A stretch of DNA of 64,000 nucleotides from Phyllobates terribilis (taxonomy: Eukaryota), in contig NW_027362769.1 of assembly GCF_046119375.1 (NCBI RefSeq), positions 89,776,001 to 89,840,000 on the forward strand, in the 5' to 3' direction. The translations under genes and the position numbers were made by a program. How positions within the stretch are numbered: the first letter of the stretch is position 1; each line of letters starts with the position of its first letter. Positions 29,851 to 59,600 of the stretch are shown here, one piece after another. The notes beneath the pieces were generated by a model, which ran no database searches, was not told where the DNA came from, and worked only from the letters and a program-made list of their open reading frames with translations.

Positions 29851-30197
29851 AGCGTTTGTCCAAGAATTAAAGATTGTATATGTTTGAGGCCAATTTATTT
29901 TAATTTTACTTAAATACATGAATTTTTAGCTACAAACCACTTGAAGTTCGTCACTCCCTAACTTCCAGTAAGCCTGGCAGACCTTATTTAAATGTGATTT
30001 ACCTGAAGGTTACCGCTATTTTTGCAGCTATAAATAGGGATTTAGTAGGTAATAAGGTCCCTTTAATGTAGTTGAATTGAGATCTGTCAGTGTACAGTAT
30101 TGTAGAGCTAAAATCTTATTTTTTTTGTGATTTTAATCTTACATTTCTATGTGTTTCATAGGTTGTGAAGGCACAGATTTTGTGACGCCACCAAAGG

Positions 30198-32631
30198 ATG
30201 AACAATAATAATTTTTTCGGTGGACAGCAAACCTCAAGCGCCAATTCACAAAGTCAGAATGCAGTTATGTTTGGCCAGACGACATTATTTGGCCAAAATG
30301 CAACTGTACAGCCTGCCCCTGCGTTTGGACAACAGTCTAGTGGCCAGTCGGCCCCTATGTTTGGACAGCAGGGTAACAGCCAATCTTCCACTGTTTTTGG
30401 GCAGAACACTTTAAGCCAGTCTTCTGTGTTTGGACAGACTAATTCTGCTCAAACCGCTCCAGCATTCGGCCAGACAAGTGGTGGACTGTTGGCTCCTACA
30501 TTTGGACAGGGCTCTTCTTCAGGGCCACTGTTTGGTCAGGCTCCTTCTGGCCAGTCTAATTCTATATTTGGGCAGGCCACCTCTGGGCAGTCAGCTCCTA
30601 CCTTTGGACAAGCAGCTAATACTTCAGTGTTTGGACTAGCCACATCTGGACAGACTGCTCCGCTGTTTGGACAGTCTAATTCAGGGCAGTCTGTTCTTTC
30701 ATTTGGGCAGTCCACTGGTCAGTCAGCACCTGCTTTTGGACAGGGCTCTTCTGCACAGTTTACCCCAGTATTTGGACAGAGCACTTCTAGTCAGTCTACA
30801 CCCGTGTTTGGACAGGCCACATCTGCTCCATCTGCTCCTGCATTTGGGCAGGTTTCTTCTGCTCCAGCCTTTGGACAGGCTACATCAGGACAGTCTGGCT
30901 TTTCCTTTGGGCAGGCTGCTAATAATCAGTCTGCTACTACTTTTGCACAACAACCTTTGGGACAAACTGGTTCTGCCTTTGGGCTGGCAACTACCGGACA
31001 ATCCTCTTCCCTCTTTGGACATACAACCAATGCCCAATCAGTACCTGCATTTGGACAGACTTCTACTGGGCAAACTGCTCCAACATTCGGACAAAGTAGT
31101 ACCAATCAATCCTCTATATTTGGACAAACTACTCCCAGTAAAAATGCATCTCCTTTTGCTCAAGTACCATCTAGCCAATCAACATCCCTCTTTTCCCAGG
31201 CGACTACTAACCAATCTGCATCTTTTTTTACACAGCCTACAACTAGCCAGTCAGCTTCCCCCTTTGGAAGCAATACTTCGATATTTGCCCAGGCAACATC
31301 TGAGTCATCTCCAGCATCCAGACAGTCTGAAGATGGCTCAAATCAGGGTCCACAATTTGGACAACAATCCCCAAGCAGTAGATTTTTGTTTGGCCAGACA
31401 CCCTCAAACCAGACAGCTATGTTTGCGCAGAATGTGACTGGGCAAAGTTTTAATCAGACAAGTTCCACCCAATCTGGGCCAAATGGTAATAGCCAGATTT
31501 CTGCATTTGGACAGGTAAACAGTGGGCAAAGTAATATTTTTGGTCAGTCACCTGGCTTCCAGCCTTCATTTAGTAAGCAGGAATCTGGTTCTGTCAGTGC
31601 ACAACCTGCGCAACCATCTTCTGCATTTGGAATCGCACAATCAACACAAGTTAGCAAGGCGGCAGCAACAGAGAAAATGTCAGTTTTTGGTCAGCCATCA
31701 AATATTTCCTCAGGTCAGACTGGAAGTGTGTTTGGTGCCACCACACCGACCAGTTCTACTGCCGTGGACTCCACTTTTACACAGGTGGCATCCAATTCTG
31801 AGCACAGTTTCAAACCTCCCGCTCATACAACTTTCAAGCCGATCCTAACGGGAGCAAATAAATCAGATGAAACTTCCGCACCTTCTTTTAGCATGTTAAG
31901 TAAAAACGAGTCAAAAGATCAACCCCTCTTTGGAGCTCCTACGTCATCCTCTACATCTGGGAACCTCAACTTCTTCTCTATGTCTTCCGATAAGAAAAGC
32001 AAAGGTGAAGCAGGAACACCCAGACCTTCATTTGCAAGTGCGAATAGTAGTTTCACTAGTTTTTCTGAAGAGCCAAGAAGAGAAGAGGGACAAAAAGGAC
32101 TAAAAAGAAAAGAGGAGCATGATCGTTCACCACGTAGAAATGATGCTGCCATCTCAGGTGAAGCTTCTTCAGATCCCCATAGCGAACATCTACCCATTAA
32201 GAGGTCTGGTCGGTTGAACCGGGATTTAAAAGGAGGAGCTAACATCTATGTTAGGAGTTTGTTTGATGTTGTAAAAAGTCAAATGAAAACGGAGCGTGGA
32301 AGAGAAATTAAAAAAGGTGATAACGTTTCTCCACAGCCCAAAGTGACAGGTGCCGATTCTCCATCAAAAAATCAACCAATTATCAGACCTCTTTTAGGTC
32401 CCAATCAAAATGAATCTGTTAAAACTATCTCGGCCAGTTTATCAAGTCAAGTAAATTCTAATAAGTCCCAAATGGCCGGTACAGGTCATGCAACATCTTC
32501 CAGAATGGTTTCATTTCTGGGGCCAAACCAACAAGGATCTCCCAGAGACCATTCTTCATCTGTACCTAGTGAATTGATATCGGGAAGAATTCGACCCTTG
32601 CTGGAAGAAGGAGAGCTGCCTGAACTTCAAG
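30198..32631 (+). CDS. MCM3AP: MCM3AP coding exon 1 (FGQ-repeat domain; exon starts at 30162 after a catag acceptor)
   Basis: 811 codons plus 1 nt; CAAG|GTGAGG donor; about 35 FG dipeptides. Confidence 0.93.
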
Positions 32632-35600
32632 GTGAGGGCATTTTTCTCCAAAATTTATTTTCTGTTCTATAATGTCCATAAAGCAATATTTTCTTAAAAA
32701 AAAAAAAGCTGATAANNNNNNNNNNNNNNNNNNNNNNNNNNNNNNNNNNNNNNNNNNNNNNNNNNNNNNNNNNNNNNNNNNNNNNNNNNNNNNNNNNNNN
32801 NNNNNNNNNNNNNNNNNNNNNNNNNNNNNNNNNNNNNNNNNNNNNNNNNNNNNNNNNNNNNNNNNNNNNNNNNNNNNNNNNNNNNNNNNNNNNNNNNNNN
32901 NNNTGTCCATAGGCCTTGCAGTGGTGATGTCATGACTACAGCGACTATGATGGCTATAGCCAATCACTGGTTTTGGCAGCTTTATACGTTTTCATCAGCA
33001 TCACCTCTGAGCCCTGTGATTGGCAGCAGCGGTCACATATGGTGTAGTCGTGATGTCACGGCTGTAGACTGGGCAGAGGAGAATGGCTGGACCTGCAGAG
33101 GGTTACTAACTTTGATCATATTATTTTTCCCAAGCGCAAGCCTATACACATAAAACATTTTTAGAACCGAAAACCCATCGAAATCTTTTTCTTGTTTTCT
33201 AATGTGTCGCTTTTCTTCTCCAGCTACTTCCTCAAGCTCTTCAGTAAGTAAAGGAGAACGTTGTGATGGGGCTGAACACTCGCTCCCGGTCTTCCCCAGT
33301 GAGCTGACTACTATTTTTCTAAAGAATGTGCCTAATAAATTGAACAAGAAAAACATCATGGAGGATTACTTTAAGAAGTATGGCAAAATTCTGCGTATTA
33401 ACTGCAGGATAAAGCAAAAAACGGTCCACATTCAATATAGTAACCATGTGAGTAAAAAAAAAAAAAAAAAAATTAAATAATGTGCTTATACTTTTGATTG
33501 CTGGGTCATTGGTAAAAAGGGTAATGTGGTTTTGTATTGGGATTTTAGTGAAGCTGGTGACGTCACATCTGCATATATCTACCAGCTTGCGTGTGTGATC
33601 GACGGGTATTGCACGCCTTTTTTATTCATTGGTATTGCGGGTGCGCAATACCTGATACTCGTGCAGAATTGTAATTTGATTGTCACCTATGAGTACATTT
33701 ACTAACCAAACTCTGATGGTTTAGTCATTTTAGGCAGGTACAATATATGTATTTGTACATCTGTATAAATAAGGGCATGTTCACACAGTGTTTTTTTTTT
33801 CCCAAGCGGGTTTTGAGCAGATCCTTTCCGGAAAATGCCTGAAAAAGTGCTCCAAAGAATCTTCCTATTCATTTCTATGTAAAATCGACAAGCTTTTCAC
33901 ACGTTCCGGGTTTTGAGCGTCTTTTAACCGCTTCAGATTTCTAAAAACACCAAGTGGTTAAATTAAGTGAGCTGACCATTTTTTCAGGTGTTTTCTACTA
34001 GATCCACACAGGAAGGCTTAAAAACGGTTATAAGATTCATGGGCATTTGTTTTTACTGTTTTTCACTTCAAAAATTCTGAGTGTCTTATTCATTGCTTAA
34101 CAGATTTTTATTTAAAAAAAAAAAAAAAAAAAAATGGCTAAACCCCCCCAAAAAACATATACAGAAAATGGCAACAATAAACAGTAACAAGTTGCTTCAA
34201 AAAAACAAAACCGTAACGAAAACTCTTCAGGATAAGAAAATGCATTTTTTTCTCTTGAAGTGGTTTCCGCTAGAAAATCCCATAATTTTCACACTCGTGA
34301 AACAAATGTATGAACATGCTCCTACGGTATTGATTTGGGGAAAAAAAGGAATCACTCTTAGGATACTATTTTTGCTTTTACAGAACTCTGCGGCAGCAGC
34401 AAGGAAAGCAGTGAAAAAACTACATAAAGACATTGTTGCTTTTTGGCAAAGGAAAAAAACAAGTGAGTGATTATGTCTCATTTATGTGCTACAAGTACAG
34501 AATCCCATTATTAAGACGTTCTCTTAGAGAAGCAATGCTTGCATTGGAGACTCTCTCAAATAAAATGGCATCCAATTGAGCAGACACGATTGTATGACAT
34601 TGGAGGCATACGTATGGGTGCCATTGTAGCTCCAGTGCTGTCAGAGCCATGATACACCTGTGTGTATGGACTCTTAATCCCAGTAATACTTATCATCTTT
34701 CAGGTCCTGCGAAGAAGAAAGAGGCTCAAATAGCGGAGAGAGAAGTCCGACAAAATGAGCAGAAAGGCATTTCAGCCATCGCGCCTGTATGCAAACCTCT
34801 TCTCCGAGGGCTAAAGGGGTAATTGTAAAACACTCATGGTAGTTTAGAATTGTTATTTTCTTTTTAATACTAAAATAGTTTTTTTGCTCTGTTTTAGATC
34901 TTCTCTTAAAAAGACCACATTTCCCAAGAATCTTCAGTTTAGTGTTCAAAATATTGATAGCTCAGCACCGTCTTTTGACACCTCAATGTCTTTGCCTCCT
35001 TCACTGTTGCATCTTGTGGGAACCGTAGCGGAGACCTCAGAGGAGAAGTATCGGCTCCTAGACCAGAGGGACAAGATATTGAGACAAGGTATTCAAAGAA
35101 TATGTTGAAGTTTTGCAATAATTTAGATATATAGAGAAGTAAATTTGTCATTTGTGGAAAACTAACCAAAAAAAGAAATGGATAAGTCTCTTAATACATT
35201 TTCCAATTAGTTTTCCTCCTATGTTTATAGCTCGAGTTAAACGAACTGGATTAGATCAAGCCAAAGTTTTTGTAGGAAACTGTCCTGACATGTGCCCTGA
35301 AAAGGAGCGATACATGAGGGATACTCGCAATCAACTTAGCCTCTATGAGTTCCTTCCAGGAACAGACAAGGTAATTGAATCCATCACCTTCCTACCTCCA
35401 AATATTTTGAGCATGGCATGTATATCCCCCAAAAATCTTTGTCTTTTGTAGCATTTTTTGTGTTCAGTTTACTTTGAATTGTCTACATTTTGGTTTGAAA
35501 ATAACGTTCACGATCCCTTCCTTTCAAAGTTGGACCATGCAGCTGCAATAAAAGAGTACAGCCGGTCTTCAGCAGATCAGGATGAGCCCCTGCCACACGA

Positions 35601-38600: not shown

Positions 38601-41600
38601 CTAGAAAACATGGTTCGCCTCCTCTTTTTCCATGATACGGAGGAAGCTGCAGATTTTCTTATATCCTATGGCTTAAGTGTTAGTGAAGGGTAAGTGTGCC
38701 TTAGAGCGGCAATCTCTGGAATATACTGTATTAATTATCCTTTATACTTACTGTGTTTTTTTTTTTTTTTTCCCCTACTGAAAGTTGTGTAGAGCTGAAT
38801 CGTACTGCATATGTTGAGCCGTTGATTCCTTTTCAGCCAAAGAGGAGCTCCTATATCAGTTCTAAGCAGCAAAAGTCTGTAGGGGAGGTTGTGAATGGAG
38901 CCCCACTCCCACAGTTTTCTTTGCATATGCCTGTTTGCAGCTTTGATGGCCAGAATAAATATACTGGAAGTTTTAGCATTTATGAACCAGGAATAACAAC
39001 AGGTAAGTAAAAAATGAACTTAAAAATAAACAAAACTTTGTGTCATGGTTCTCAGTCAGCGTTAACAAGTTGGTGTTTCTCATTAATAGCATTGGGGGAC
39101 GCAGCACATGCCACTAGGAGGCTGACAAAAGGCAGAAAAAAAAAAGTGCTGGCTCCGACAGGTCTGCTGTATCCTCCCATCGGACACTAGGCAGCTCTGT
39201 TTTAGCATAGTCTCTTTGGAGCATTTTACCCACTTCTTGTCCTAGTCTGCAGAGATCTTCATTGTTGATTCTGCCCCCACTTTGCTCCAAGGCTAGTCTT
39301 TTTTTCATTGGCTGGTGCTGACATCCAACACCAGTCTCTTGGGTTTAGGAACGTTGTTCTCACATCATAACTCTGAGTCTCTCGTTCTCCTGGAACTATG
39401 AGGACTTTTTTCTAGCCCTCTCCCTCTGGTACGCACCGTATACTAAACCACAGTAGTTTATGGTAGTTTATTATGGTTACATCATGGAGGTCACTGGGAA
39501 TTCCTTTTATGTGTTAGTAGCCACGGGTGTTTGTCCAAAAGAAGAAGTCTCTAAGTCTATTGTCTTCGCACTTCACAACTGGGCTGCATATTTTTCATCT
39601 GAGAATCTGTAGCTACAGGGGGACTGGCCCCATCTGGAGATTTTACACCATTTCTCTTTTTGGTGGAAGACTCCTGACTCGAGTCTCTTCTTGTCGTGGC
39701 TCCATCCCAGCCTGTCCGCCTGTTCTCTGGACACCATGATCTTCACTGTGAACGTACTGGTCGTCCCTTGCGGAGAGTTTTGTCTCCTCTATTTGTTCTC
39801 CAGCTGGCCAATGCATATCTAATTCCAGTTATCCTTAGTACTTAGTGATAGTCTCACCAAGCCTAGCATTCTGACCTGGTTCTTCTGGTCACTGTTGCTC
39901 CTTGGCCTCTTCCTTTTTGCCTGAACTGTCTTCTCAGGATCCCCTATTCCACCCCTTCTAAGTTTTTTGGCTTGGTTGTGAATCTAGAGATTTTAAGCCC
40001 ATAAACTTCAGTTTGTAAAGGTTTATCTCTGTACTTAGGATTCTTACTACCCTTGGTAGAAGAAACCAGGTTTTTACTTTCTTAAAATGTTTCACTCTCA
40101 ATATCTTGTAGCGAGCTGTGAAAGACAATGCTTCAGCCCCTTTACTTTTGTAGGACATGTTTTTGCCCTTTACACCCTCTTTTAGAGATCCAGACCACCT
40201 GCGAGCAGGTCTAGACTTGCTCAGGGGATGGTCGCTTTGTGCCACGCTACCAGAGTATTCTGGAACTCTTAAATCTCCTCCTATTCTGATTGTGTTAGAA
40301 ATTTTATTTCCAGCGCTTCTGCTGTGTTTTTTTCACAGACTGATTTCGAGGAGGATCACCTTTTGATCATCACCACTATTCCCAGGATCTCTGTTAGTTG
40401 TAGGCGCCTGTAGTAGATCTATCTTCCTTATTTTCCATTAGGACAGGATGGTTTACTGCTCTTTCTTCCATTCACTTCAATAAGTATATTATCCTTAGCT
40501 CCTTGGTCCCTTCCCCTTTTCATTTTCTGGAGTGTTCCTTGCAACGTTTGGTTTTCTCTATCGCTTTATTGGGGGACACAGGAAACCATGGGTGTATGCT
40601 GCTGCCACTGGTTTTATCATGGCTACTAGTATCATTCTATCCGTTACAGAAGCTCGCCATAGTTTTGACTCTCTTTTCGTAATCTCTTTCTCAAAGATTA
40701 GCTTTTTTCTAGTGGTTTTGGACTGTGATTTTGGACGTTTACAGCGCCAGGAGTAGAGCTGCTTCCTTTTGCATTTATCTCATCCGACAAGAGTGGTCAG
40801 TAGATATGATCGAACAAAATCTCCAGTGGCCAGTTGAGTATTCTGTGGTTGCTGGATGTGATTTCTGCAAATCACCACATATCTGACGACATCCACAGCT
40901 CCTCCTTTGATTGGGCGTTCTGACGTCACGTCATGTGTACATCATGCTGCAACAATGATGTCATGACAGGCCAGCTAATCAAGCGGAGTCAGAGATTCTG
41001 GCAGATAGGAGGCCGTTTTGCAGGGTTCCTGCCTGGCAACCATCAGGGTTCCGCAAATTGATTTGCTCATCTCTAGTGGTCAGGTTTCTGGCTTCCATTC
41101 CCTTGGTTGGCAAGGCTGCCACCTAGGCCGCAATTTGCATCTTTGCCCAGTTCTTTCTAGGTTCTCATCATGACCTTGGGTCAAGATGCGGCAAGTCCGT
41201 GCACTTGGTGATCCGCATGGTCAGTTTTTTGGTATTGCCCACCCTCTGGGACTGCGCTAGGATGTCCCATGGTGTTATGTCCTCCTGTGCTATTAATGAG
41301 AAAATTTGATTTTTGTATTTAATGTAAAATCTTTTTTTCCTGAAAGAGGTTTTCCCACGATCAAAAGTTAATTTTAATCAACACATCTTGGAATAATAAT
41401 AACTTCCACAATTGGATGTGATGAAATAAAATGTTCCTGTGCTGAGATAATCTTATAAATGTGCCCCTGCTGTGTACTGTGTAATGACCCTGCACAGTCA
41501 GACACAGCCATTACACAGTACACAGCAGGGGCACATTTATAAGATTATCTCAGCACAGGAACATTTTATTTCATCACATCCAATTGTGGAAGATATTATT

Positions 41601-44600: not shown

Positions 44601-47600
44601 TATTGTATATCTCTAAATCTTACACTTTATAAAACTATTGAATTTACTTCCACACTCCAGGTGTCAACAAGTCAGGGAACAGATATTTCACCAAATGAAG
44701 GTTCAGCACTATTTACAAGAGCTACAATGGTTTGTATATAACTTTAAATTACTAAGAGTAACTGTTGTTTCAATTAAAAGAATTGTGTACCGTGTGATGA
44801 GAAACTTTTTAATAATGTACCTTCTTGAAAAAAAAAATTACATTTCCTTATGTAACGGGTCTGGGAGGCGGAACCTCTGGGCTACTATACAAGGGAGCGG
44901 TCCTTGTAAGGGAGCGGGTGGCGACCAGGCAGGCAGTCACAGCAGGTGACCGGGACAGTCTCTGGGTGTACGGGCAGGAGGTCACGGCAAGTGACCGGGG
45001 CAGTCTCTGGAAGAACGGGCTGGAGGTCACGGCAAGTGACCGGGGCAGTCTCTAGGTAAAGGGTAGGTACGACCTGTGATGGCTGAACCTCCAGGTAGGC
45101 TAGCAAGGCAGATGGAGGATGTGTGCTCCCAGGTGAGCAAGCGAGAGTCTCTGGAATAGCAGGTGGTCACAGCACGTGACGGCGGAGCCTCCAGGTAGGC
45201 AAGCAGGCAGGTAGCGGAGAAGCGCTCCCAGGTGAGCGGGCAAGAGTCTCTGGAATAGCTGGTGGTCACAGCACGTGACAGCGGAGCCTCCGGGCAGGCA
45301 AGCAGTCAGGTAGCGGAGAAGCGCTCCCAGGTGAGCTGGCAAGCTGGTCCATAAACAGACTGACCGGAGTTGTAAGGCAGACCGTCGGACCTCAGGCAAG
45401 CAGGCAGGTAGCTGATGTGCGCTCCCAGGTGAGCGGGCAAGTTGGTCCTTAGACAGACTGACCGGAGTTGTAAGGCAGACCGTCGGACCTCAGGCAGGCA
45501 GGCAGGTAACAGGAAATCAGGCAGGATTAGGACAGCAAGCTGGCAGGAATCTGGCAGGTAACTGGCAACGGGACCTGAGGGCTGAAGCAGAGTAGAACGG
45601 TGCAACAACATTGCTCGGGCACCTCCATTTTGGAGGAGGTGCCTTATATATGGTAAAGTCCTCCGGCCATTGGCCGGGGACTCCTTAGGACGGCGCGCGC
45701 GGCCCCTTTAAGAGGGAGGGAGGGCGGGCGCGCGCGTGCGCGCTGCCGGCAGAGCGGGAGAGGGACGCCGGGCACGGAGCAGAGCGGTGAGGGGAACAGC
45801 GTCCCTGCCTAGCAGAGGGCAGGGACGCCGGCACTACAGTACCCCCCCCTTTAGGCCCCCCCTTTTTTAGGCCAGATAGAAATTTAGCTAGGATGAGAGG
45901 GGCATTTCTCCCGGGGCTCCCACGTTCTCTCCTCAGGACCAAACCCCTTCCAATCTACCAGAAAAAAGGTCTTTCCTCTTACCCTTTTGGTGGCAAGAAT
46001 GTTCTCTACCTCAAACTCGTCTTCAGCAGAAACCGGAGCAGGAGGCGTACCTGTAGACTTGGAAAAAGAGTTAAGTACCACGGGTTTGAGGAGAGATACA
46101 TGGAAGGAGTTAGGGATCCGTAAGTTGGCCGGGAGTTTCAATTTATAGGCCACCGGGTTGATCTGACTGAAGACCTCCAGAGGACCGATGAACCGAGGCC
46201 CTAACTTGTAAGAAGGTATCTTGAGTCGAACATATTTAGATGAGAGCCAGACTTTATCTCCTGGACGAAATTGTGGAGGATCCAGGCGTTTTTTGTCAGC
46301 GTGTCTTTTCATACGCTCGGATGACAGAAGGAGTGCGGACCGGGTACTCTCCCATATGGAGGAAAATTTGCTAACGAGAGATTCCGCAGCCGGGTTGTCC
46401 ACAGAGGTGGAGACAGGAAAAGGAATCCGAGGATGCTGACCAAAGACTACAAAAAACGGGGATTTGGAGGAGGATTCGCTCTCGTGATTATTATAAGAGA
46501 ACTCGGCCCATGGTAGGAGATCCACCCAGTCAGAATGGTGGGCATTAACGAAGTGCCGGAGGTAACTGGTCAGGTTCTGATTGATCCGCTCCACTTGACC
46601 ATTGGACTGTGGGTGGTAAGCGGAAGAGAAGTCCAGGGTGACGTCTAGTAGTTTACAAGTGGCTCTCCAGAAACGTGAGGTGAACTGTACCCCATGATCC
46701 GACACGATGTGGAGGGGCAGGCCATGAAGACGAAAGATGTGGCGGATAAAGTCTTTAGCCAGCTCGGGTGCAGACGGAAGGCCTGGCAGGGGAATAAAGT
46801 GAGCCATCTTGGAAAAGCGGTCAGCGACCACCCAAATGACCGTACAACCGGCAGAGACGGGGAGATCAGTTATAAAGTCCATTGCTATATGCTGCCAGGG
46901 GGCAGCAGGTACAGGAAGCGGAAGGAGGCGTCCGGCTGGCAGATGTCTCGGGACTTTGTTGCGGGCGCAGGACACACAGGCAGAAACAAAGTCTATTATG
47001 TCCTTGTGCAGGGTAGGCCACCAATAGTGCCGGGCAATAAGCTGGAGGGTCTTTTTCTGACCGGCGTGGCCAGCTAGTTTAGACGAATGGCCCCAGTGTA
47101 GGATCTTCTCCCGATCAGGTACTGAAACAAACGTCTTACCGGGAGGGAGACGATTTAGACTCACGGGAGCCACCTGCATTACTCTGGCGGGATCGATGAT
47201 ATGTTTAGGTTCTTCCTCGAGATCGGACACCAGAAAGGATCGGGACAAGGCGTCTGCTTTGACGTTTTTGTCAGCCGGGCGAAAATGAAGAACAAAATCA
47301 AAGCGAGCAAAAAACAAGGACCACCGGGCTTGGCGCGGGTTAAGTCTCTGGGCATGCTGGAGGTAAGCCAAGTTCTTGTGGTCAGTGTAAATTATTACCG
47401 GATGAAGAGCCCCCTCGAGTAGGTAACGCCACTCCTCCAACGCCAGCTTGATGGCCAATAACTCTCGGTCTCCTATGGAATAGTTGCGCTCAGAAGAGGA
47501 GAAGAGTTTGGAGAAGAAGCCACAAGTTACCATTCTCCCGGAAGATGATTTTTGAGTAAGTACCGCTCCGGCTCCAGAGGAGGAGGCGTCAACTTCCAGG

Positions 47601-50600
47601 AAGAACTGCTTGTTGCCGTCCGGGCGATGCAGCACCGGGGCGGAAGAGAAGGCCTGTTTTAGGGAAAGAAAGGCCTCCTCTGCTTCGGGCGGCCACTCTT
47701 TGGGATTAGTACCCTTACGGGTGAGCGCGGAAATTGGGGCAGTCCGGGAAGAGAAGTGTGGGATGAAGAGGCGGTAATAGTTGGCGAAGCCCAGGAACCG
47801 TTGAATAGCCTTCAACCCCTCTGGTCGGGGCCATTTCTCGATGGCAGACAGTTTCTCAGGATCCATTTGTAGGCCGGTCTGAGAGATAATGTAGCCCAGA
47901 AACGGAAGCGAGGTCTACTCAAAGAGGCACTTCTCATATTTAGCGTAGAGATGGTTCTGCCTGAGCAGGATCTGACGAACATCCCTCCGGTGAGTCTGGA
48001 GATCCGGAGAGAAGACCAAGATGTCGTCCAGGTACACCACTACGCAGGAGTAGAGAAGGTCCCGGAAGATGTCATTGACCAACTCTTGAAAGACGGCAGG
48101 AGCGTTACAGAGGCCAAAGGGCATTACCAGATATTCATAGTGGCCGTCCCGGGTGTTGAATGCCGTCTTCCATTCATCCCCCTGACTGATACGAACCAGG
48201 TTGTACGCCCCACGGAGGTCCAGTTTGGTGAAGATTCTAGCCCCCCTCAGACGATCAAATAACTCCGGAATGAGCGGAAGGGGGTACTTATTCTTCACCG
48301 TGATCTGGTTAAGGCCTCTATAGTCTATACAGGGACGGAGAGAGCCGTCCTTCTTTTTGACGAAAAAGAAGCCTGCTCCCGCCGGGGAGGTAGATTTCCG
48401 GATGAATCCCCTGGCCAGATTCTCCTCAATATATTCGGACATCGACCGGGTCTCAGCAGCGGATAATGGATAAATACGCCCACGGGGAGGAGAAGTACCA
48501 GGTAACAGGTCGATAGGGCAGTCGTATGGTCTATGAGGGGGTAGTGTCTCTGCCTCCTTTTTATTAAAGACATCAGCATAAGACCAATAAGGAATCGGAA
48601 GTCCAGGTAGATTAGCTGGGGTAGGAGAAGGACGGACGGGATGAACGGGAACCAGACAGGTCTTATGGCAGCCCTGTCCCCAGCGAAGGACTTCTCCGGT
48701 CTGCCAGTCAAGAACGGGTGCATGTTTCTGGAGCCAAGGTAGGCCTAGCAAGAGGGCGTGAGAGAGTCCAGGCAGAACATGGAAGGAGATACTTTCAGAA
48801 TGCAGCATTCCCACCTGCAGAGTAATGGATTCGGTGATGAGTTGGATGGGGTGTGGTAAGAGCCCCCCATCCACGGCAGCAACAGACAAGGGTACAGCCA
48901 GAGGTTTGGTGGGGATGCGGTATTTCTCTACCAGGGACTGTGAAATAAGATTCCCGGCTGCTCCAGAGTCCAGTTGGGCTAGTTCGAAATAACGGTTCTC
49001 CCCGTAGACGATTGAAACTGACAACAGCAGGGATGGAGAGGATTTATTCTTGTCTAGGTGGACCTCTCTGAGCGAACCTAGACACAGGCGTTTCCCGACC
49101 TCTCCGGGCAGGCACGGATCCGGTGCTCCTTACTGCCACAGTAGAAGCAGGTCCCCTCGGCACGGCGTAAGTCCTGACGGGTCTTGACCATCTTGGTCTG
49201 GTCGACCTGCATAGGCTCAGGAGGGTGTACCTGGTTAGAGACAGAAGGAGTGACGGGTTTCTGAAAAGTAGGAGCTAGACGTGGTAACCTCCTCTCACGG
49301 GTGACCTCTCTGGCACGCTCCTGGAACCGTAGGTCAATCCGGGTGGCAAGAGTTATTAAGTCATCGAGAGTGGTAGGAATGTCCCGATCGGCAAGTTCAT
49401 CTTTAATACGGCCGGACAGACCCTCCCAGAAGACGGAAACCAGAGCGTCGTTATCCCAGGCCAGCTCCGAGGCAAGGGTACGGAACCGTATGGCATATTG
49501 GCCCACGGTGAGACTTTCCTGACGGAGGCGTAGCAACGATGATGCGGATGAGGTCTTCCGTCCGGGTTCGTCGAAGACTTTCCGGAAAGCCGTGAGAAAA
49601 GCAGGCAAATTGGACACCAGGGGGTCTCCTCTCTCCCATAGAGGATTTAGCCAGGCCAGGGCCTCCCCGGTGAGATGGGACATGATGAATGCAATTTTGG
49701 CTCGGTCGGAGTTAAACTGGTGGGACAATAGTTCAAAGTGCAGGGTGCACTGATTTATGAAGCCCCGAGCCTGGGCTGAGTCGCCTCCGAAGCGAGGAGG
49801 TGCAGAAAGCCGAGGTCCGGGGTAGGATATCATGGTGTTAGTGGACAGCGGAGCTGCCGGATTGCGAGACATGGCACTGGCGGAGGTTGTTGGTGGAACA
49901 GTCAGAGTGTCCAGGCGAGTATTGACATTCCGCAGGTGACCCAGGATGGACTCCTGTTGGGACCTTTGACGGGACAGTTCATGACACAGGTCCGAGAGCG
50001 AGGGAGCTTGGGTGCCACCGGGTTCCATGGCCCGAGCAAACTGTAACGGGTCTGGGAGGCGGAACCTCTGGGCTACTATACAAGGGAGCGGTCCTTGTAA
50101 GGGAGCGGGTGGCGACCAGGCAGGCAGTCACAGCAGGTGACCGGGACAGTCTCTGGGTGTACGGGCAGGAGGTCACGGCAAGTGATCAGGGCAGTCTCTG
50201 GAAGAACGGGCTGGAGGTCACGGCAAGTGACCGGGGCAGTCTCTGGAAGAACGGGCTGGAGGTCACGGCAAGTGACCGGGGCAGTCTCTAGGTAAAGGGT
50301 AGGTACGACCTGTGATGGCTGAACCTCCAGGTAGGCTAGCAAGGCAGATGGAGGATGTGTGCTCCCAGGTGAGCAAGCGAGAGTCTCTGGAATAGCAGGT
50401 GGTCACAGCACGTGACGGCGGAGCCTCCAGGTAGGCAAGCAGGCAGGTAGCGGAGAAGCGCTCCCAGGTGAGCGGGCAAGAGTCTCTGGAATAGCTGGTG
50501 GTCACAGCACGTGACAGCGGAGCCTCCGGGCAGGCAAGCAGGCAGGTAGCGGAGAAGCGCTCCCAGGTGAGCGGGCAAGCTGGTCCATAGACAGACTGAC

Positions 50601-53600
50601 CGGAGTTGTAAGGCAGACCGTCGGACCTCAGGCAAGCAGGCAGGTAGCTGATGTGCGCTCCCAGGTGAGCGGGCAAGTTGGTCCTTAGACAGACTGACCG
50701 GAGTTGTAAGGCAGACCGTCGGACCTCAGGCAGGCAGGCAGGTAACAGGAAATCAGGCAGGATTAGGACAGCAAGCTGGCAGGAATCTGGCAGGTAACTG
50801 GCAACGGGACCTGAGGGCTGAAGCAGAGTAGAACGGTGCAACAACATTGCTCGGGCACCTCCATTTTGGAGGAGGTGCCTTATATATGGTAAAGTCCTCC
50901 GGCCATTGGCCGGGGACTCCTTAGGACGGCGCGCGCGGCCCCTTTAAGAGGGAGGGAGGGCGGGCGCGCGCGCGCGCCCTAAGCACAGTGGCCGGGAAGG
51001 AGCGCGCGCTGCCGGCAGAGCGGGAGAGGGACGCCGGGCACGGAGCAGAGCGGTGAGGGGAACAGCGTCCCTGCCTAGCAGAGGGCAGGGACGCCGGCAC
51101 TACACCTTAGAAAGCAAAAAAATGAGAAAAAGCAATTCAATCTATTACACACTGTTCAATGCGCACCATTCACCGCGATCTGTCTGATTAAACAGGCTAT
51201 TAAACGATTGGTACATTTTTACCAAATGGCGTTCGTTTAATGCCACCAGTTGGTCCATGTAAACAGACCACAGGGGAACTTATTGGCTCCCGTACAAACG
51301 CCTTGGCCGGGAGCTTAAATGGCGCTTTCAGTGATTGACAGCGGCATTTAAGAAGTTAACAGTTGCAGTCGGCGGTAGTGCTGATTGCTGCTGTCAAAGG
51401 CAGATGCCAGCCATGTAATATAGCCGGCATCTGCATTGTGTGGAGTGGACTCTGCTCCTGAGCCCATTCCAAACACCCTGATACGCTTCATGATATAATA
51501 GTGTGTCATAAAGCATTAAGGGGGTTAAGACCTTTTGGGGAGTGTGGTGTGTGAAATAACTGAAAAAGTTAATTAATAAAAACGGTAAGTGTAAAAAAAA
51601 AAAAAAAAATAGAATTGTTGTTTCTAGCTCGCTTCTGTCGAAACAAAAGATGTCCAATATCTAAAAATAATTTCTAAGGCAAAGGAAATATAGTTTTGAA
51701 TATTTTTTAGTGAACCTTTATGGTTGTAAAAAAAAGAACAATATGAAAACTAGACATGTATTTCCTATTTTTTTTTATATTTTTCCCCTGATATCCGCAA
51801 AAGAAAAATAAAGGGATATAAAAATTAAGTAAATCCCGTGCTGTAATGTCTGTATACTCTTTTGCTTTCCCCCTGCCCAGGAGATGTGGTATGATCAGAC
51901 CATGTTCCTGTACGGTCAGACGCAGCCATTACACAGGACACAGCAGGGGCACATTTATAAGATTATCTCAGCACAGGAACATTATATTTAAACATATTCA
52001 ATTGTGGAAGTTATTATTATTCCAAGATCTAGTAATTAAAATGAACTCTTGTTTATGGGAAAACCCCTTTAAGCATATGCTGAATGTCTCAGTGCTTGCA
52101 TCCTGGACAGGATAGTGTGCACTGCACCATTGATTAAATTTCTAATAATTGTTTTAGTCAATAATAAAAGCAAAGTTTTATTTCTAAATAGTTGACTACA
52201 AAAATGGTGTAGAATGGGCATAAAGGGTATATTTTGACCATTGGAAACAGTTACCTTGTAGGTAACTGCCCATTCCCTAGAGAGGCTTCAACGTGTTCCT
52301 CTCTATACAACAATTCTAAGCTTTGTTGGTGAAAAATTCAGAATCCAAGTGAGATAATGACCAGAAATTTTATTATTTCTCACACATGACAGCTTATTCT
52401 GTAGTCAATGGAAACGCCAGCTTCTATATGAAATTATTATATTGTATGCCTTTTTTAATTTATAAATGGATCTGTTCTTGCCATACAGCGATGCTGCGTG
52501 GACACCCCTGGAGCTTCCATCTCTGATTGTGGAGCACCTTCCCACATGGAAGCAATGCATCTTTTGGAAAGTTGTTATTGCCCTCCCTGAAGTTAATGGT
52601 CATGATGATCCTACAAAGTAAGTAAATAGTTGCGTTATACACCAAATAATAGCTGACAAAACACTCTTATTAATACAGTTCATTCTCTGTATTGCAGCGC
52701 TCTGTCAGAGTGGTTAAAGGCCAAGTTCAGTTTTGCAGGTGTCAGGCCTGAGGATGAACACAAGCAGCAAGTTCAGACACTTGCACTGTACAGCTCCTTA
52801 GAGTCTCAAGGAGGATGCCCAGTTCGAGTGAATGTTTGTGTAAAGGTGAGGCCGTCAGATGGGCATCAGATGTATATTGGAATTGCCCAGGAAATCTGAA
52901 AAAAAAAATAATATTAATTAGGGTCAGTGATTCAAAATTGGGTTTCTCCGTGAATAATAATAATAAAAAAAATGATAAATAAATTCCTAAGCACCAACTT
53001 AAATTAGCAAGCCCCACTTTCTTTATCGCTTCGTTGGGGGACACAGGACCATGGGTGTATGCTGCTGTCGCTAGGAGGTTGACACTAACCAAAAAAAGAA
53101 ATAACTCCTCCTCCGCAGTATGCACCCACCTACAGGCACCAAGCTCTCCAGTTTAAGCTTAGTGTCTGTAGGAGGTAGACCTGGATCTTTACAGATCCAA
53201 CCCTGTTGTGTTTATTAACCTTTCTTTTTTTCTTTTTCAGATACTGCTCTTCAGGCTAACAGAATACATTGCGTCCCCTGTTAACCCACTAGCGACTGAG
53301 AGAGCAATGTGGCTACCCTCACATTGCCCAATCTCGGACCCACTGGGCAGGACTTATCCCCTGTCACCTTAGGGTGTCTCAGGGTGATCTCGGTGGCCAG
53401 TCCTAGCCTGTTCCCCACCCCAGCCCCCTCCTCAGAGCGGCCTGGGAGGGAGACGGTGGTCCCTGCGGGTGACCTTCCCCCAGTTTTCTGGGGTTGACAC
53501 CGTCTCCTGCACTGTCCAGGACCGGACAGTGCGGGAAGGAGGAAAAGCCAGGATCCCCCCCCTAGCCAGGAAGGCATCATGAGACTATCCTCAGAAGGAG

Positions 53601-56600
53601 AAAGGAAGGGACGGTTCCCGGACCCGCTAAGACAGGTACTTCCCTGTCTTCTAGCTGCAGGTCCCACTCCCCCGGCGTTACCTGCCGCCCTCCCCCCTCC
53701 CCTCTCACCAAACATGGCGCTTAACAGCGCTTCCCTGGGCCACTTCCTCCTTCTCCTTCATAATGCGCGGCAAATCTGCCATTCTTTTCTCCGTCGGGAG
53801 GGGGGGTGTGTCCGGTGGGCGGTCCCGCTCCGATGCCTATACGCCCCCTCCTTTTTGACCAACCAGGGCCGAGGAGCATAGTGACTCTTCCGTCACGCCC
53901 TCGTGCCTTCTGCGGACCTATCACGGCAGGCCTCCCAAGCCCGCCCCCCCCCCCATCTACCTATCGGAGCCTCGTCACGCTCCGTCATCAACTCTGCGTC
54001 CTCTGCACCGACGCCATCTCTGCCGCACGCAGCTCCCCGCTCCGTCGGCACCTATTGACCCGCGCCAGCCTCACCTTCGGAGCCTTCAGGGGGACACGGG
54101 ACCGCTTCTCTACAGGATCGGGTAGGCTCTGTCCTGACACCGACTCCCCTGCTCACAGCGCTCCCCTCTGCAGTATCCCTGGTCAGGCACATATGCCCAA
54201 ACCCAGGGAGCCCTCAGTCCGTCCCTCTCACATCGTCACATACTACGCCTGTGCTCTTTGCGGTACTAAGTGGCCCGCGGGTCTCACTACGGCCTTCTGC
54301 TCGACCTGCAAACCTCCCGCCATGCTGGCACCCCAAGATCCCCCCGCCGCTCAGGACGTGGTAACCTCCTCCCCTCTGGAGTGGGCTGTTGCTATGTCAC
54401 AGTCTGTCTCTGACCTCACCAAGGTTTCTCAATCTCTGGTGCAGGTCTTAGAACGCTTGCCAGAACGTTTGCCTACGTTATCCACGGCCACCAGCGCTCC
54501 GAATGTCCCCACAGACGATTCGCAGGCACCCCTGCCCCTTCCTCACAGGGGCAGACTGACGGCACGTTCTCAGAAACGGACCTACGCAAGCTCATCCTCC
54601 AGCTCTCCAGACTCCAAGATGCTCCCTGCATCTCACACCTCTTCCCCGGAGGTCGCCCCGGATCTAACTGTGCTTCAGATTCAGACTCTGGTTCCGATGC
54701 AGACCAGTATTCCAAGGTCCAGGACATGATAGAGAGCCTTATAACGGCTGTCAATCAGACTCTGCATGTTACAGAAGACGAGAGCCCTTCCCGGGACTAC
54801 TCAGTTTCCTTCAAAAAGATTAAGCGTCCTGCACGCACTTTTTCTAACCAAGCAGAATTTGACAGCGTTTTTCAAAAGCAGTGGGAGCATCCAGAAAAGC
54901 GCTTTACAGGAAAGAAACAGTTAAACATCCTATACCCCTTTAACCATGACCTTGTCAACAAATGGACGGAGTCCCCATCTGTGGATCCTCCCGTCTCTCG
55001 CCTTTCCGCCAAGACGGTACTGTCTCTTCCGGATCGTTCCTCCCTTAAGGATACCACGGATAGACAGGTTGAGGCCCTCACCAAGTCAGCGTTTGAGGCT
55101 GCGGGCACCTCCTTCTGCCCTTCCTTCGCCTCAACTTGGGTATCAAAAGCAGTGTCCGCATGGGCCAAACAGCTCAGACAGGGCATCCTAGCAGGCGCCT
55201 CCCCGGACGATCTGGCCGACTTAGCTGATCAGATCGGCCATTCTGGAAAATATCTACTTACGGCGTCCCTCGACTCCGCTGCATGCTCAGCCCGGGTTTC
55301 CAGTAATCTCGTTGCCTTACGTAGAATTCTTTGGCTTAAAGCCTGGAACGCCGACCCGGCTTCCAAAAGATCTCTAACTAATCTTCCTTTTCAAGGTTCC
55401 AGGCTGTTTGGATCCAAGCTAGATCAGATCATCTCCGATGCTACTGGGGGTAAGAGCACCTCTCTCCCCCAGCCCAGACCCAAACGCCCTTTTCCTAGGA
55501 GACGCCCCCTTCAATTCCGGTCCTTTCGTCAGTTCGCTCAACCGAACCCCTCCTCCCAACTGGACCATACTCCAGCACAGCGGGACAGTCGTAGACCTTC
55601 CTTTAGGCCCACGCCTAACCGGCGCCCAAAGAGTCGCTCCTCCCAAGTCCTCTGGATCACGATCACGATCCAACAGGTTTTCCTCAACATGACGGGTCAC
55701 TCCCACCTGGGACTTCTCCCAGGGTGGGCGGCCGTCTCCTTCTGTTCAGATTCTTGGCTCCCGGCAATAGAAGATGCCTGGGTAAAAGAAATTGTGACTT
55801 CCGGCTACAAAATCGAGTTTGATTCCAGCCCACGATCACGCTTTCTCAGGTCCCGCCCCCCACCAACCATCTTCTTCCTGGTTTCCTCCAAGCCATCACC
55901 TCCCTTCTACGCTCAGGAGTCATAGTCCCGGTTCCCGTTCAGGAAAGGTTTTCCGGTTTTTACTCAAATCTCTTCGTCGTCCAAAAAAGGACGGCTCACT
56001 ACGTCCGATTCTGGACCTCAAACAGCTAAACCGACATGTACGCATCCGACAGTTCAGGATGGAGTCCCTCAGGTCGGTAATCGCCTCAATGGAGGCCGGG
56101 GAATATCTATGTTCAGTGGACATTCAGGATGCATACCTTCACATCCCAATCTGCGCGTCACATCAGAAGTTCCTACGCTTTTCCTTCAAGAACGCACATT
56201 ACCAGTTCACTGCCCTCCCCTTCGGCCTCGCCACAGCCCCGAGGGTTTTCACGAAGATGATGGCGACAGTTATGACCATTCTTCGAACAAGGGGAATTGT
56301 AATCATCCCCTACCTCGACGACCTGTTAATCAAAGGCCCCACATTCAAGGACTGTCTCCACAGCCTCCAGATCACCTTGAACACTCTCTCCTGGTTAGGC
56401 TGGCTAATCAACACGGACAAATCCTCCCTGGTCCCATGCCAACGCCTAACCTTCCTAGGGATGCAGTTCGACACGACCCGTGCCCGGGTCCTCCTTCCGA
56501 GGGAAAAGATAAACTCCCTACGACAAGCAATCCACATCCTCTCCGACCCAGGTCCACACTCCCTTCGCCTATGCATGAGTGTCCTGGGAAAGATGGTAGC

Positions 56601-59600
56601 GGCCATGGAGGCAGTTCCGTTTGCCCAGTTCCATACCCGGTCTCTTCAACTAGCCCTTCTCTCAGCTTGGGACAAGAATCCGTCATCTCTAGATCGACGC
56701 ATCAAGTTACCTCGTCAAGTAAGACGGTCGCTAACCTGGTGATCCCGCCCTTCTTCCTTCAGACCTGGGAGATCATTCCTTCCACTTCACTGGCAGGTGG
56801 TCACCACCGACGCCAGTCTCATCGGTTGGGGGGCAGTTTTCCTACAAGACACGGTCCAGAGCCTGTGGAGTCCCCATGATGCCTCCCTTCCCATCAACAT
56901 TCTGGAGATAAGGGCGATTTACCTGGCGTTACGCCACTGGCAGAAGATCCTGGCAGGGTCCCCAGTCCGGGTACAATCGGACAATGCCACGGCCGTGCCA
57001 TACATAAACCATCAGGGAGGAACGCGCAGCAAGCCCGTTTTAAAAGAGGTGGCAAGAGTGCTTCTTTGGGCCGAGAAAACGGTCCCGGCAATCTCAGCAG
57101 TCCACATTCCAGGGGTCGACAATTGGGCGGCCGACTTCCTCAGTCGGCAGGGCCTCGCCTCAGGAGAATGGTCTCTCCATCCTGAGGTGTTTCACCAAAT
57201 CTGCTTGCGGTGGGGCACACCGGACGTCGACCTCATGGCGTCCCGGTTAAACCACAAGGTCCTGTCCTTTGTAGCTCGGTCCCGCGATCCAGTAGCAGTC
57301 GCTCAGGACGCGCTAGTCATATCATGGTCACAGTTTCAACTGCCCTATCTTTTTCCACCTCTACCTTTGATCCCTCGAGTCATCAAAAAGGTCAAGACAG
57401 AGGGAGTACCAGTTCTCCTAGTAGCCCCAGATTGGCCCAGACGCCTCTGGTACACAGATCTGGTAAATCTGCTTGTCGACTCCCCCTGGAGACTACCAGA
57501 CCGTCCGGACCTCCTCTCAGGGTCCTTTTCTTCATCAGAGTTCTCGTTCTCTGAATTTAATGGCATGGCCGTTGAGGCCGCGGTGTTGAAGACGGCGGGC
57601 TTTACTGACAATGTCATTCAGACCCTAATTAACGCCAGAAAACCCGCTACCTCGCGCATATACCACAGAACTTGGAGAGCCTTTTTTCGTAACTGCGAAC
57701 AAAATCAACTGACTCTTATGTCCTTTTCTTTGCCAGTCATTTTGGCTTTTCTTCAGTCTGGCCTAGAGGCGGGACTATCTCTCAGCACTCTCAAAGGCCA
57801 AGTTTCGGCCTTGTCCATTCTATTCCAACGTAACTTAGCTAGCCGTCCTTAGGTCAGGACCTTTCTACAAGGGGTGGCCCACATGGCGCCCCCCTATCGC
57901 CCTCCAGTGGAACCATGGTTCCTTAATATGGTCCTAAGCGTCCTACAACAGCCTCCTTTTGAACCCATTCAGGACATTCCAGCCTCTCTCCTTTCCTGGA
58001 AGGTGGCTTTTCTGGTGGCTGTTACCTCTATTAGAAGGGTCGCAGAACTAGCAGCCCTCTCTTGTCGGTCGCCTTTTCTGGTATTCCATCAAGACAAGGT
58101 AGTGCTCAGGCCGGTGCCTTCCTTTTTGCCAAAAGTGGTTTCCGCTTTTCAAATTAATGAGGACATCGTTTTGCCTTCCTTTTGCCCTGCTCCAGTGCAT
58201 CCACGGGAGAAGTCTCTACACAAACTGGACCTGGTCAGAGCTGTACGTGTGTACCTTTCCAGAACGGCCTCCCTTTGGCGCTCGGATGCCCTTTTTGTCA
58301 TCCCTGAGGGGCCTCGCAAGGGTCTCCCTGCTTCCAAGTCAACCATCGCCCGTTGGATACGTTCGACCATCTTGGAGGCACATTCCATCTCGGGCAAACC
58401 TCCCCCTCCCGGAGTAAGGGCTCACTCCACCAGGGCGGTTGGGGGCCTCTTGGGCGGTTCGCCATCAGGCTTAGGCCTCTCAAATCTGCAAGGCCGCAAC
58501 GTGGTCTTCTCTTCACACCTTTTCAAGGTTTTACAAGGTCCACACGTATTCTTCGGCTGATGCCAGTCTTGGACGGAAGGTCCTGCAGGCAGCAGTTGCC
58601 GAAATCTGACCTAGTCTGTGACTATCTTCTGTTCTCCCACCCAAGGGACTGCTTTGGGACGTCCCATGGTCCTGTGTCCCCCAATGAAGCGATAAAGAAA
58701 GAAAGGGATTTTTGGGTACTCACCGTAAAATCTCTTTCTTTGAGCCTTCATTGGGGGACACAGCACCCTCCCTGTGTTTGGACCTATGTCCTGTTGGGCA
58801 TCTCATTTAGTTTTTCACGGTTTTGCCCCATTGGGCATTACATAGTTGGTTCTTATTGTGCTTCTCCTACTGCTCTAGCCACTAACTGGTGAGCTTGGTG
58901 CCTGTAGGCGGGTGCATACTGCGGAGGAGGAGCTATTTTCCTTTTTTTTTTGCATAGTGTCAACCTCCTAGCGACAGCAGCATACACCCATGGTCCTGTG
59001 TCCCCCAATGAAGGCTCCAAGAAAGAGATTTTACGGTGAGTACCCAAAAATCCCTCTCTTGTTGTCTAGGGACGTGAGGTAATAACTACAGTACATTAAA
59101 ATATTTGCCATTGTGTTATAATGATGGAAACCGGTTAATAGTACTGGTGCGTGTGAGCATGTGCAGTAGGAATCTCTCCCCCTTTTTCATATTTAGAAGG
59201 ATGTGCTCCCATTGAATATTCTGACCTAATACTGGTTATAGGAGGTAAAGATGGTGGACCGCAGTGTGAGAAGCCTCTTCTTACTTCAGCACTCCTGGTA
59301 TCTCCAGTATTAGATCAGATAGGTTGAACAGCAGTGTGAGCAGCCTCTTCATATTTCAGCACTCATGGAATCTCCAGTATTTGATCAGATAGACAGGGTG
59401 GACAGCAGTGTGAGCAGCCTCTTCTTACCTCATCATCCCCGGTATCTCCAGTATTAGATCAGATAGACACGGTGGACAGCAGTGTGAGCCGTCTCTTCTT
59501 ACTTCATTACCCCTGATATCTCCAGTATTAGATCAGATAGGATGGGCAGCAGTGTGAGTAGCCTCTTATACCTCCAGTATTAGATCAGATAGGCATGGTG

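Follow-up and report, generated by a model that had tools for sequence, protein, structure and literature searches.

How does a long terminal repeat (LTR) retrotransposon begin its reverse transcription when the primer-binding site (PBS) next to its 5' LTR does not look like one for a tRNA? The question is raised by a full-length element on the minus strand of a 64-kb stretch of the Phyllobates terribilis genome (NW_027362769.1:89,776,001-89,840,000, forward strand; this whole stretch is referred to here as the window, and positions are window coordinates). The element is a Ty3/gypsy chromovirus, as seen from its TG...CA LTRs, 5-bp target-site duplication (TSD), polypurine tract, gag-protease-reverse transcriptase (RT)-RNase H-integrase order and C-terminal chromodomain. 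We consider it highly likely that its reverse transcription is primed by the 5' end of its own RNA, in the manner of the fission yeast element Tf1.

The putative PBS, TTGCTCGGGC, lies 2 nt (GT) beyond the terminal CA of the 5' LTR, and a single C separates it from the gag ATG at 50028. Its exact 10-nt complement, GCCCGAGCAA, is found inside the 5' LTR and begins 30 nt after the start of a TATATAA box, with a CCAAT box further upstream (Table 1), and in all of these respects the preliminary description of the locus, coordinates included, holds. The exact match ends at 10 nt, and the 10-mer pair is present at only three places in the window (50039-50030, 50856-50847 and 45620-45611). The plainest alternative is chance complementarity in a GC-rich LTR, since ten bases is a short match, and the chance of an exact 10-mer anywhere in the 5' LTR is by arithmetic about 1054/4^10 = 0.001.

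The behavior of the pairing among relatives in the same genome bears directly on this. With two gag profiles we gathered 160 further elements (100 of 150 matches of one profile and 60 of 150 of the other), giving 161 loci with that of the window. LTR ends were set by self-alignment only, and 73 of the 161 loci have an LTR pair ending in CA, 39 of these with a perfect 5-bp TSD. The set of 39 is free of PBS selection bias, because it is defined by the LTR pair and the perfect TSD only. The 10-mer 2 nt from the LTR end (offset +2) has an exact complement in the element's own 5' LTR in 27 of the 39, and a complement with at most one mismatch in all of them; the corresponding exact counts are one and three at offsets 0 and 1, and none of the 39 at offsets 3-30. 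Across all 73 LTR pairs the match is exact at +2 in 43 and in at most one at any offset from 3 to 30; 14 pairs fail even when one mismatch is permitted, none of which is TSD-confirmed. This positional restriction (27/39 at offset 2 versus 0/39 at offsets 3-30), together with the two-sided changes at six positions described below, already refutes the chance explanation, to which we assign a vanishingly small probability.

A second, larger set was anchored on flanking sequence, with the LTR 10-mer located by its upstream flank and the 10-mer itself excluded from the search. Removal from the 161 loci of 23 without a PBS-like site, four false calls with a TA spacer and ten without an anchor left 124 elements in six lineages, and outside the window element's lineage W the gag core is 34-48% identical to that of the window element. 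(L101, L134, L211 and L217 are mis-anchored; they count as failures among the 124 and were left out of parts of the promoter, structure and splice analyses.) The duplex is perfect in 77 of the 124 and has at least nine Watson-Crick pairs in 113. The perfect duplexes are of several types, given here by the LTR side with the number of copies: GCCCGAGCAA 12, GCCTGTGCAA 8, GCCCGTGCAA 5, GCTAGAGTAT 32, GCTTGAGTAT 4 (in two lineages), GCCTGAGTAT 11, GCTTGTGTAT 4 and GCGAGATTAT 1. The pairing whose conservation the preliminary description proposed to check is thus kept with different letters across these 124 elements and six lineages. Both sides have changed at positions 3, 4, 6, 7, 8 and 10 of the 10-mer, positions 1, 2, 5 and 9 being essentially fixed, and we count at least eight two-sided changes, or nine with L230, in which a rare letter at position 6 is common to both LTRs and the PBS. 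The types GCCTGTGCAA, GCCCGTGCAA and GCCCGAGCAA largely track clades of the gag tree, with L242 and L246 outside the main group of their sequence type (the bootstrap is not fully settled). In lineage W, 25 of 48 duplexes are perfect, compared with a mean of 9.4 and a maximum of 19 in 10,000 shuffles of the partners. Among 56 elements with both LTRs readable, the three sites agree in 38, one site differs in 15 and more than one in three, and the single-site differences look like decay after insertion.

The borders of the pairing are sharp. The PBS is at offset +2 in all lineages, and the helix stops sharply 2 nt from the CA. Position 11 against the spacer (n=124) gives T-G 59, G-T 24, A-T 13, T-A 10, T-T 9, C-A 5 and 4 others; because this position pairs inconsistently, and position 12 almost never, we infer a primer of 10 nt, possibly with one weak additional pair. 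A symmetry of the element ends (GT after CA, AC before TG) was considered and put aside, as it holds in lineage W and not in lineages A, B and C (GG/GA versus AA). As judged from these comparisons, either selection maintains the pairing or the priming reaction itself templates it, and in either case the 5' end of the RNA would occupy the PBS.

If the 10-bp helix serves some other purpose, such as folding, packaging or control of translation, a host RNA (a tRNA fragment or small RNA) could be the primer. At 0-5 nt from the LTR end, TGG is present in only two of the 134 elements of the PBS set, and the one case in the 39-element TSD set is L254, a one-letter variant. Exact patterns searched genome-wide give no case of the 10-mer ahead of a tRNA T-loop motif by 5-55 nt or behind one by 0-12 nt; a comparable pattern for a genuine tRNA-Lys, the positive control, gives 448 matches. 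The better match of the PBS to a host tRNA that the preliminary description had named as a test was therefore not found with the T-loop patterns, nor was a tRNA-type PBS. The view of host tRNAs that this affords covers the 63 matches of an RF00005 search, which fall in two clusters, and two examined genes, both tRNA-Lys(ttt); that view, and the fact that priming itself is deduced, leave a host primer some room. Set against it, in all lineages the helix sits exactly at the PBS, with a sharp end 2 nt short of the CA, the 10-mer has no tRNA-like context in these searches, and the PBS letters differ between lineages, which would be incompatible with a fixed host primer. We regard a host-RNA primer as very improbable. 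The conserved pairing with compensatory change, and the lack of a tRNA-type PBS in these searches, support the self-priming interpretation first offered for the locus. We also note that tRNA-Lys(ttt) genes form a large tandem array, spaced about 1.05 kb apart, at G000:C1:816.9-817.9 Mb (L261).

Self-priming requires that the RNA begin with the 10-mer, and the promoter geometry is consistent with this. A TATA-like box starts 28-31 nt upstream of the 10-mer in most copies of every one of the six lineages, although the sequence between box and 10-mer differs among lineages. The base at -1 is T in 120 of 124 elements and that at +1 is G in 118, which fits the pyrimidine-purine pair usual at transcription starts. 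From this geometry we place the predicted start at G50856.

The events we envisage are as follows. Transcription would start at G50856, and the first 10 nt of the RNA would fold over a repeat-filled loop of 807 nt onto the PBS, with pairing between a U5 stem and the start region of gag aiding the docking of the primer. The RNase H of RT would then cut after nucleotide 10 (after nucleotide 11 in Tf1), freeing a 3'-OH, and minus-strand DNA would begin 2 nt before the CA of the LTR. Copying of the primer during plus-strand synthesis would regenerate the PBS, which would help to keep the two sites matched.

The loop had been described as about 815 nt, unusually long and filled with 45-bp and 99-bp tandem repeats. 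Its size needs a small correction, to 807 nt from the 10-mer to the PBS, or 817 when counted from the first nucleotide of the 10-mer to that of the PBS. Both repeats are borne out, and alongside them there is a 98-bp repeat. Its length is a different matter: although the window copy ranks ninth of 124, loops range from 161 to 963 nt with a median of 656 (one mis-anchored value is 91), ten near-identical copies have loops of 816-1001, and long loops are usual in this genome. The number of repeat copies in the loop differs among elements and between the two LTRs. Loop length varies freely, and the window loop, long relative to those of yeast elements, is ordinary for its genome. Shortening of the loop by splicing was considered and set aside, as none of 46 lineage-W loops has a donor-like site; such a site is present only in lineage B, in 11 of 14 loops and without an acceptor.

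An unconstrained loop, from 161 to about 1000 nt, is also what would be expected if the same 10-mer primes in trans, supplied by a second RNA packaged with the first or by short capped transcripts of solo LTRs or other copies. The cis duplex is only weakly populated in the predicted fold, and copies of the family are very numerous: with a 271-nt probe that spans the PBS there are 817 candidates in the 10.6-Gb host genome, and all 40 of those scored are 100% identical over the 271 nt. However, Tf1 and its relatives are described, in the available text of PMC10085805, with the structure inside the mRNA 5' untranslated region. Nothing favors priming in trans specifically, because covariation cannot separate it from priming in cis, and we hold it to be improbable, if somewhat less so than a host primer.

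The leader has further features that could take part in self-priming. All lineages have, some 25-35 nt ahead of the LTR end, a U5 segment that is pairable with the leader after the PBS, and in lineage W the GGTTCCR:TGGAACC pairing is fully possible in 32 of 51 copies. In the window element the predicted stem encloses the PBS and lies over the gag start codon, which recalls the U5:AUG stem of human immunodeficiency virus (HIV). In lineage A (e.g. L044 and L070) a U5 GTATCC is pairable with a GGATAC made up of the 2-nt spacer plus PBS bases 1-4, and such pairing might act as a switch in competition with the self-primer. Across the predicted U3/R border of the window element there is a 9-bp inverted repeat (-19.7 kcal/mol); nucleotides 1-3 of the self-primer belong to its 3' arm, so that the hairpin would form only in the RNA copy of the 3' LTR, where it could make the 3' primer copy inaccessible. 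Hairpins at the predicted start are weak in other lineages (-3.9 to -7.8 kcal/mol). Neither AATAAA nor ATTAAA was found in the 5' LTR of the window element, AATAAA is present in none of the 39 TSD-flanked LTRs (L064-L254 and the window), and in lineage W there is almost no variant hexamer downstream of the predicted start.

Taken together, these features may define a distinct frog form of self-priming, with a strict 10-nt primer 2 nt off the LTR end acting in trans or over as much as 1 kb of tandem repeats that expand freely, an HIV-like U5:AUG dock, a hairpin masking the 3' copy, no canonical poly(A) signal, and a private primer code in each lineage that is copied from the 5' end to the PBS in each cycle. 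We put this forward only tentatively and think it rather unlikely as a whole; were it true, the private primer codes would stop lineages from priming one another.

Several observations weigh against self-priming or temper the support for it. The 134-locus PBS set was chosen by likeness to PBS types that were first found through complementarity. Element counts overstate the number of independent events because kin share letters, and it is events, not copies, that carry weight. The shuffle result is weak in lineage A (34 versus 30.8; 99 of 10,000), since that lineage varies little. A nested-only fold of the 867-nt leader gives the primer duplex a probability of 0.11-0.17, although forcing the duplex costs only 1.3 kcal/mol. 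The 3' helix is significant in some lineages only, its energy having z-scores of -4.8 and -4.0 in A and A2 and only -0.9 for the window element, in which the third helix that the Tf1 'pretzel' requires, 5' of the PBS, is not significant (z -0.5 to +0.3). The R/U5 border cannot be placed, because the LTRs have no AATAAA. Finally, the transcription start, the cleaved primer and the strong-stop DNA are all deduced from sequence.

The remaining anatomy is that of a recently inserted chromovirus copy (Table 1). The two LTRs differ by four mismatches and by indels of 30 and 45 nt, and there is one in-frame stop in the RT region of pol (47917-47915). The best match of the protease-RT region in the PDB is Ty3 RT (E 2.3e-42), the sole PDB match of gag is the PEG10 capsid domain, and four of the 11 matches among gag relatives are named, all four being frogs. 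The chromodomain is a profile match to PF00385 (E 1.9e-9, profile positions 1-41 of 53) after SH3_Tf2-1. At the gag-pol overlap the heptamer GGGAAAC is present in 36 of 51 lineage-W copies and is followed by a stem, with a possible loop pairing (49068-49063/49041-49036), a combination that we take to resemble the frameshift signal of PEG10. Lineage B (e.g. L091), in which LTR pairs are 99-100% identical, has single 1499-codon frames and thus, unlike lineage W, no gag-pol frameshift.

Table 1. Features of the window element (window coordinates; ORF, open reading frame; aa, amino acids)
Feature	Position	Strand	Remarks
Full-length Ty3/gypsy chromovirus copy	44851..51104	-	TG...CA ends, 6,254 bp
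TSD, 5 bp, TAAGG	51105..51109; other copy 44846-44850	-	both outer flanks
5' LTR, 1063 nt	50042..51104	-	terminal CA 50043-50042
3' LTR, 988 nt	44851..45838	-	second GCCCGAGCAA copy at 45620-45611
CCAAT box	50905..50909	-	
TATA box TATATAA	50880..50886	-	start 30 nt ahead of predicted +1
9-bp inverted repeat across predicted U3/R border	50854..50879	-	-19.7 kcal/mol
Predicted RNA 5' end and 10-nt self-primer GCCCGAGCAA	50847..50856	-	start predicted from promoter geometry
Loop tandem repeats, 98, 99 and 45 bp	50119..50744	-	
U5 arm GGTTCCG	50060..50066	-	predicted partner TGGAACC (50027-50021) over gag start codon; stem encloses PBS
Spacer GT, 2 nt	50040..50041	-	between terminal CA and PBS
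PBS TTGCTCGGGC	50030..50039	-	not tRNA-type
gag ORF, 316 aa	49078..50028	-	capsid domains, CCHC motif (CX2CX4HX4C)
Candidate -1 frameshift signal	49036..49096	-	heptamer GGGAAAC 49096-49090; 9-bp stem 49084-49076/49059-49051
pol: protease, RT, RNase H, integrase, SH3_Tf2-1, chromodomain	45884..49129	-	another frame, overlaps gag end
Polypurine tract, then TAC	45839..45852	-	ahead of 3' LTR

Elsewhere in the window there is a broken DIRS1-like retrotransposon (53018-58892, plus strand) with a LAP2alpha-like gag, RT, RNase H and, by eye, a recombinase-like C-terminal ORF (57853-58560); its 40-nt terminal motif is found again at 40553 and 43346. An open frame of 828 aa (30186-32672, plus strand), rich in S, Q, G and FG repeats and with a weak Nucleoporin_FG match below the cut-off, is probably a large host exon. 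In the assembly at large, all of the best 150 Retrotrans_gag (PF03732) matches are on small unplaced contigs (G000 C2755-C8306; L141-L172) and belong to gag proteins that we judge to be plant-like and unrelated to those of the frog elements. They point to foreign DNA in the assembly and were not used as relatives.

For the vertebrate Tf1/sushi group, which gave rise to PEG10, self-priming has so far been, within the accessible literature, a prediction from complementarity. Six lineages, two-sided change at six of ten positions, sharp 10-bp borders and a fixed promoter distance provide strong comparative support, and the compensatory series predicts both the start site and the cut site at single-base resolution. 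Because the family is young and abundant, as the 817 candidates and the identity of all 40 scored indicate, it should be possible to measure the ends of its native RNA and cDNA. A lack of constraint on the spacing of primer and PBS is a further result from this genome. The mechanism is one that a specialist would expect, and the surprise is modest.

How, then, does the element compare with known self-priming systems? It resembles Tf1 and Tf2 in being a chromodomain-bearing Ty3/gypsy element with a PBS complementary to its own predicted RNA 5' end. It departs from Tf1 in having a duplex of 10 bp rather than 11 nt, a tandem-repeat-filled loop of about 800 nt (the whole Tf1 LTR is about 0.35 kb) and no third pretzel helix that we could find, and priming has been shown by experiment for Tf1 only and is predicted here. 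Bases 1-11 of Tf1 RNA anneal to the PBS, and the RNase H cut falls between bases 11 and 12, according to the available text of PMC7175516, and in Tf1 and Tf2 of S. pombe and Tj1 of S. japonicus the PBS is complementary to the RNA 5' end and not to a tRNA (PMC7175516 and PMC4600332, in their accessible parts). The available portions of PMC10085805 and bioRxiv 2022.12.06.519325 describe for Tf1 a helix in which U5 and the leader pair around the PBS, and a similar one is predicted for the window element; unlike the window element, with its CCHC gag and separate gag and pol frames, Tf1 has one ORF and no CCHC motif (PMC10085805, same portions).

Among vertebrate elements the closest likeness is to the Tf1/sushi group (V-clade), in the chromodomain integrase, the CCHC gag, the predicted -1 frameshift, PEG10 as the sole PDB match of gag and the frog relatives of gag. 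The CCHC gag and the predicted gag-pol frameshift fit Tf1/sushi members other than those of fission yeast, and the element also appears to have the priming trait of the group, with no tRNA PBS and a PBS complementary to the LTR segment at the predicted RNA 5' end. Self-priming and a three-duplex pretzel are called common to the fungal and vertebrate Tf1/sushi group in the accessible parts of bioRxiv 2022.12.06.519325 and PMC10085805, citing Butler et al. 2001, and vertebrate self-priming is stated with the same citation in those of PMC4600332 and PMC6317226. The available parts of PMC4340606, PMC11042837, PMC10680173 and PMC2864245 add nothing on vertebrate priming, and we found no compensatory-change evidence for vertebrate elements in the literature searched, the scope of which excludes subscription papers (including Butler 2001). 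Of the LTR elements of Silurana tropicalis, Amn-san chromoviruses are the commonest (PMC4131045, accessible part). An evident AATAAA lies close to the 3' end in models of fish Sushi LTRs (PMC3601003, accessible part), unlike the 39 LTRs here. Self-priming is predicted for the plant elements Tcn1 and TAR from a complementarity to the LTR of 10 bp or more that begins 0-5 bp past the 5' LTR (PMC6317226, accessible part), and that of the window element has just this length and position, although the hosts differ and TAR is a Ty1/copia element. The mechanism itself is thus already known from Tf1 and proposed for vertebrate Tf1/sushi elements, and what this genome adds is a natural compensatory series.

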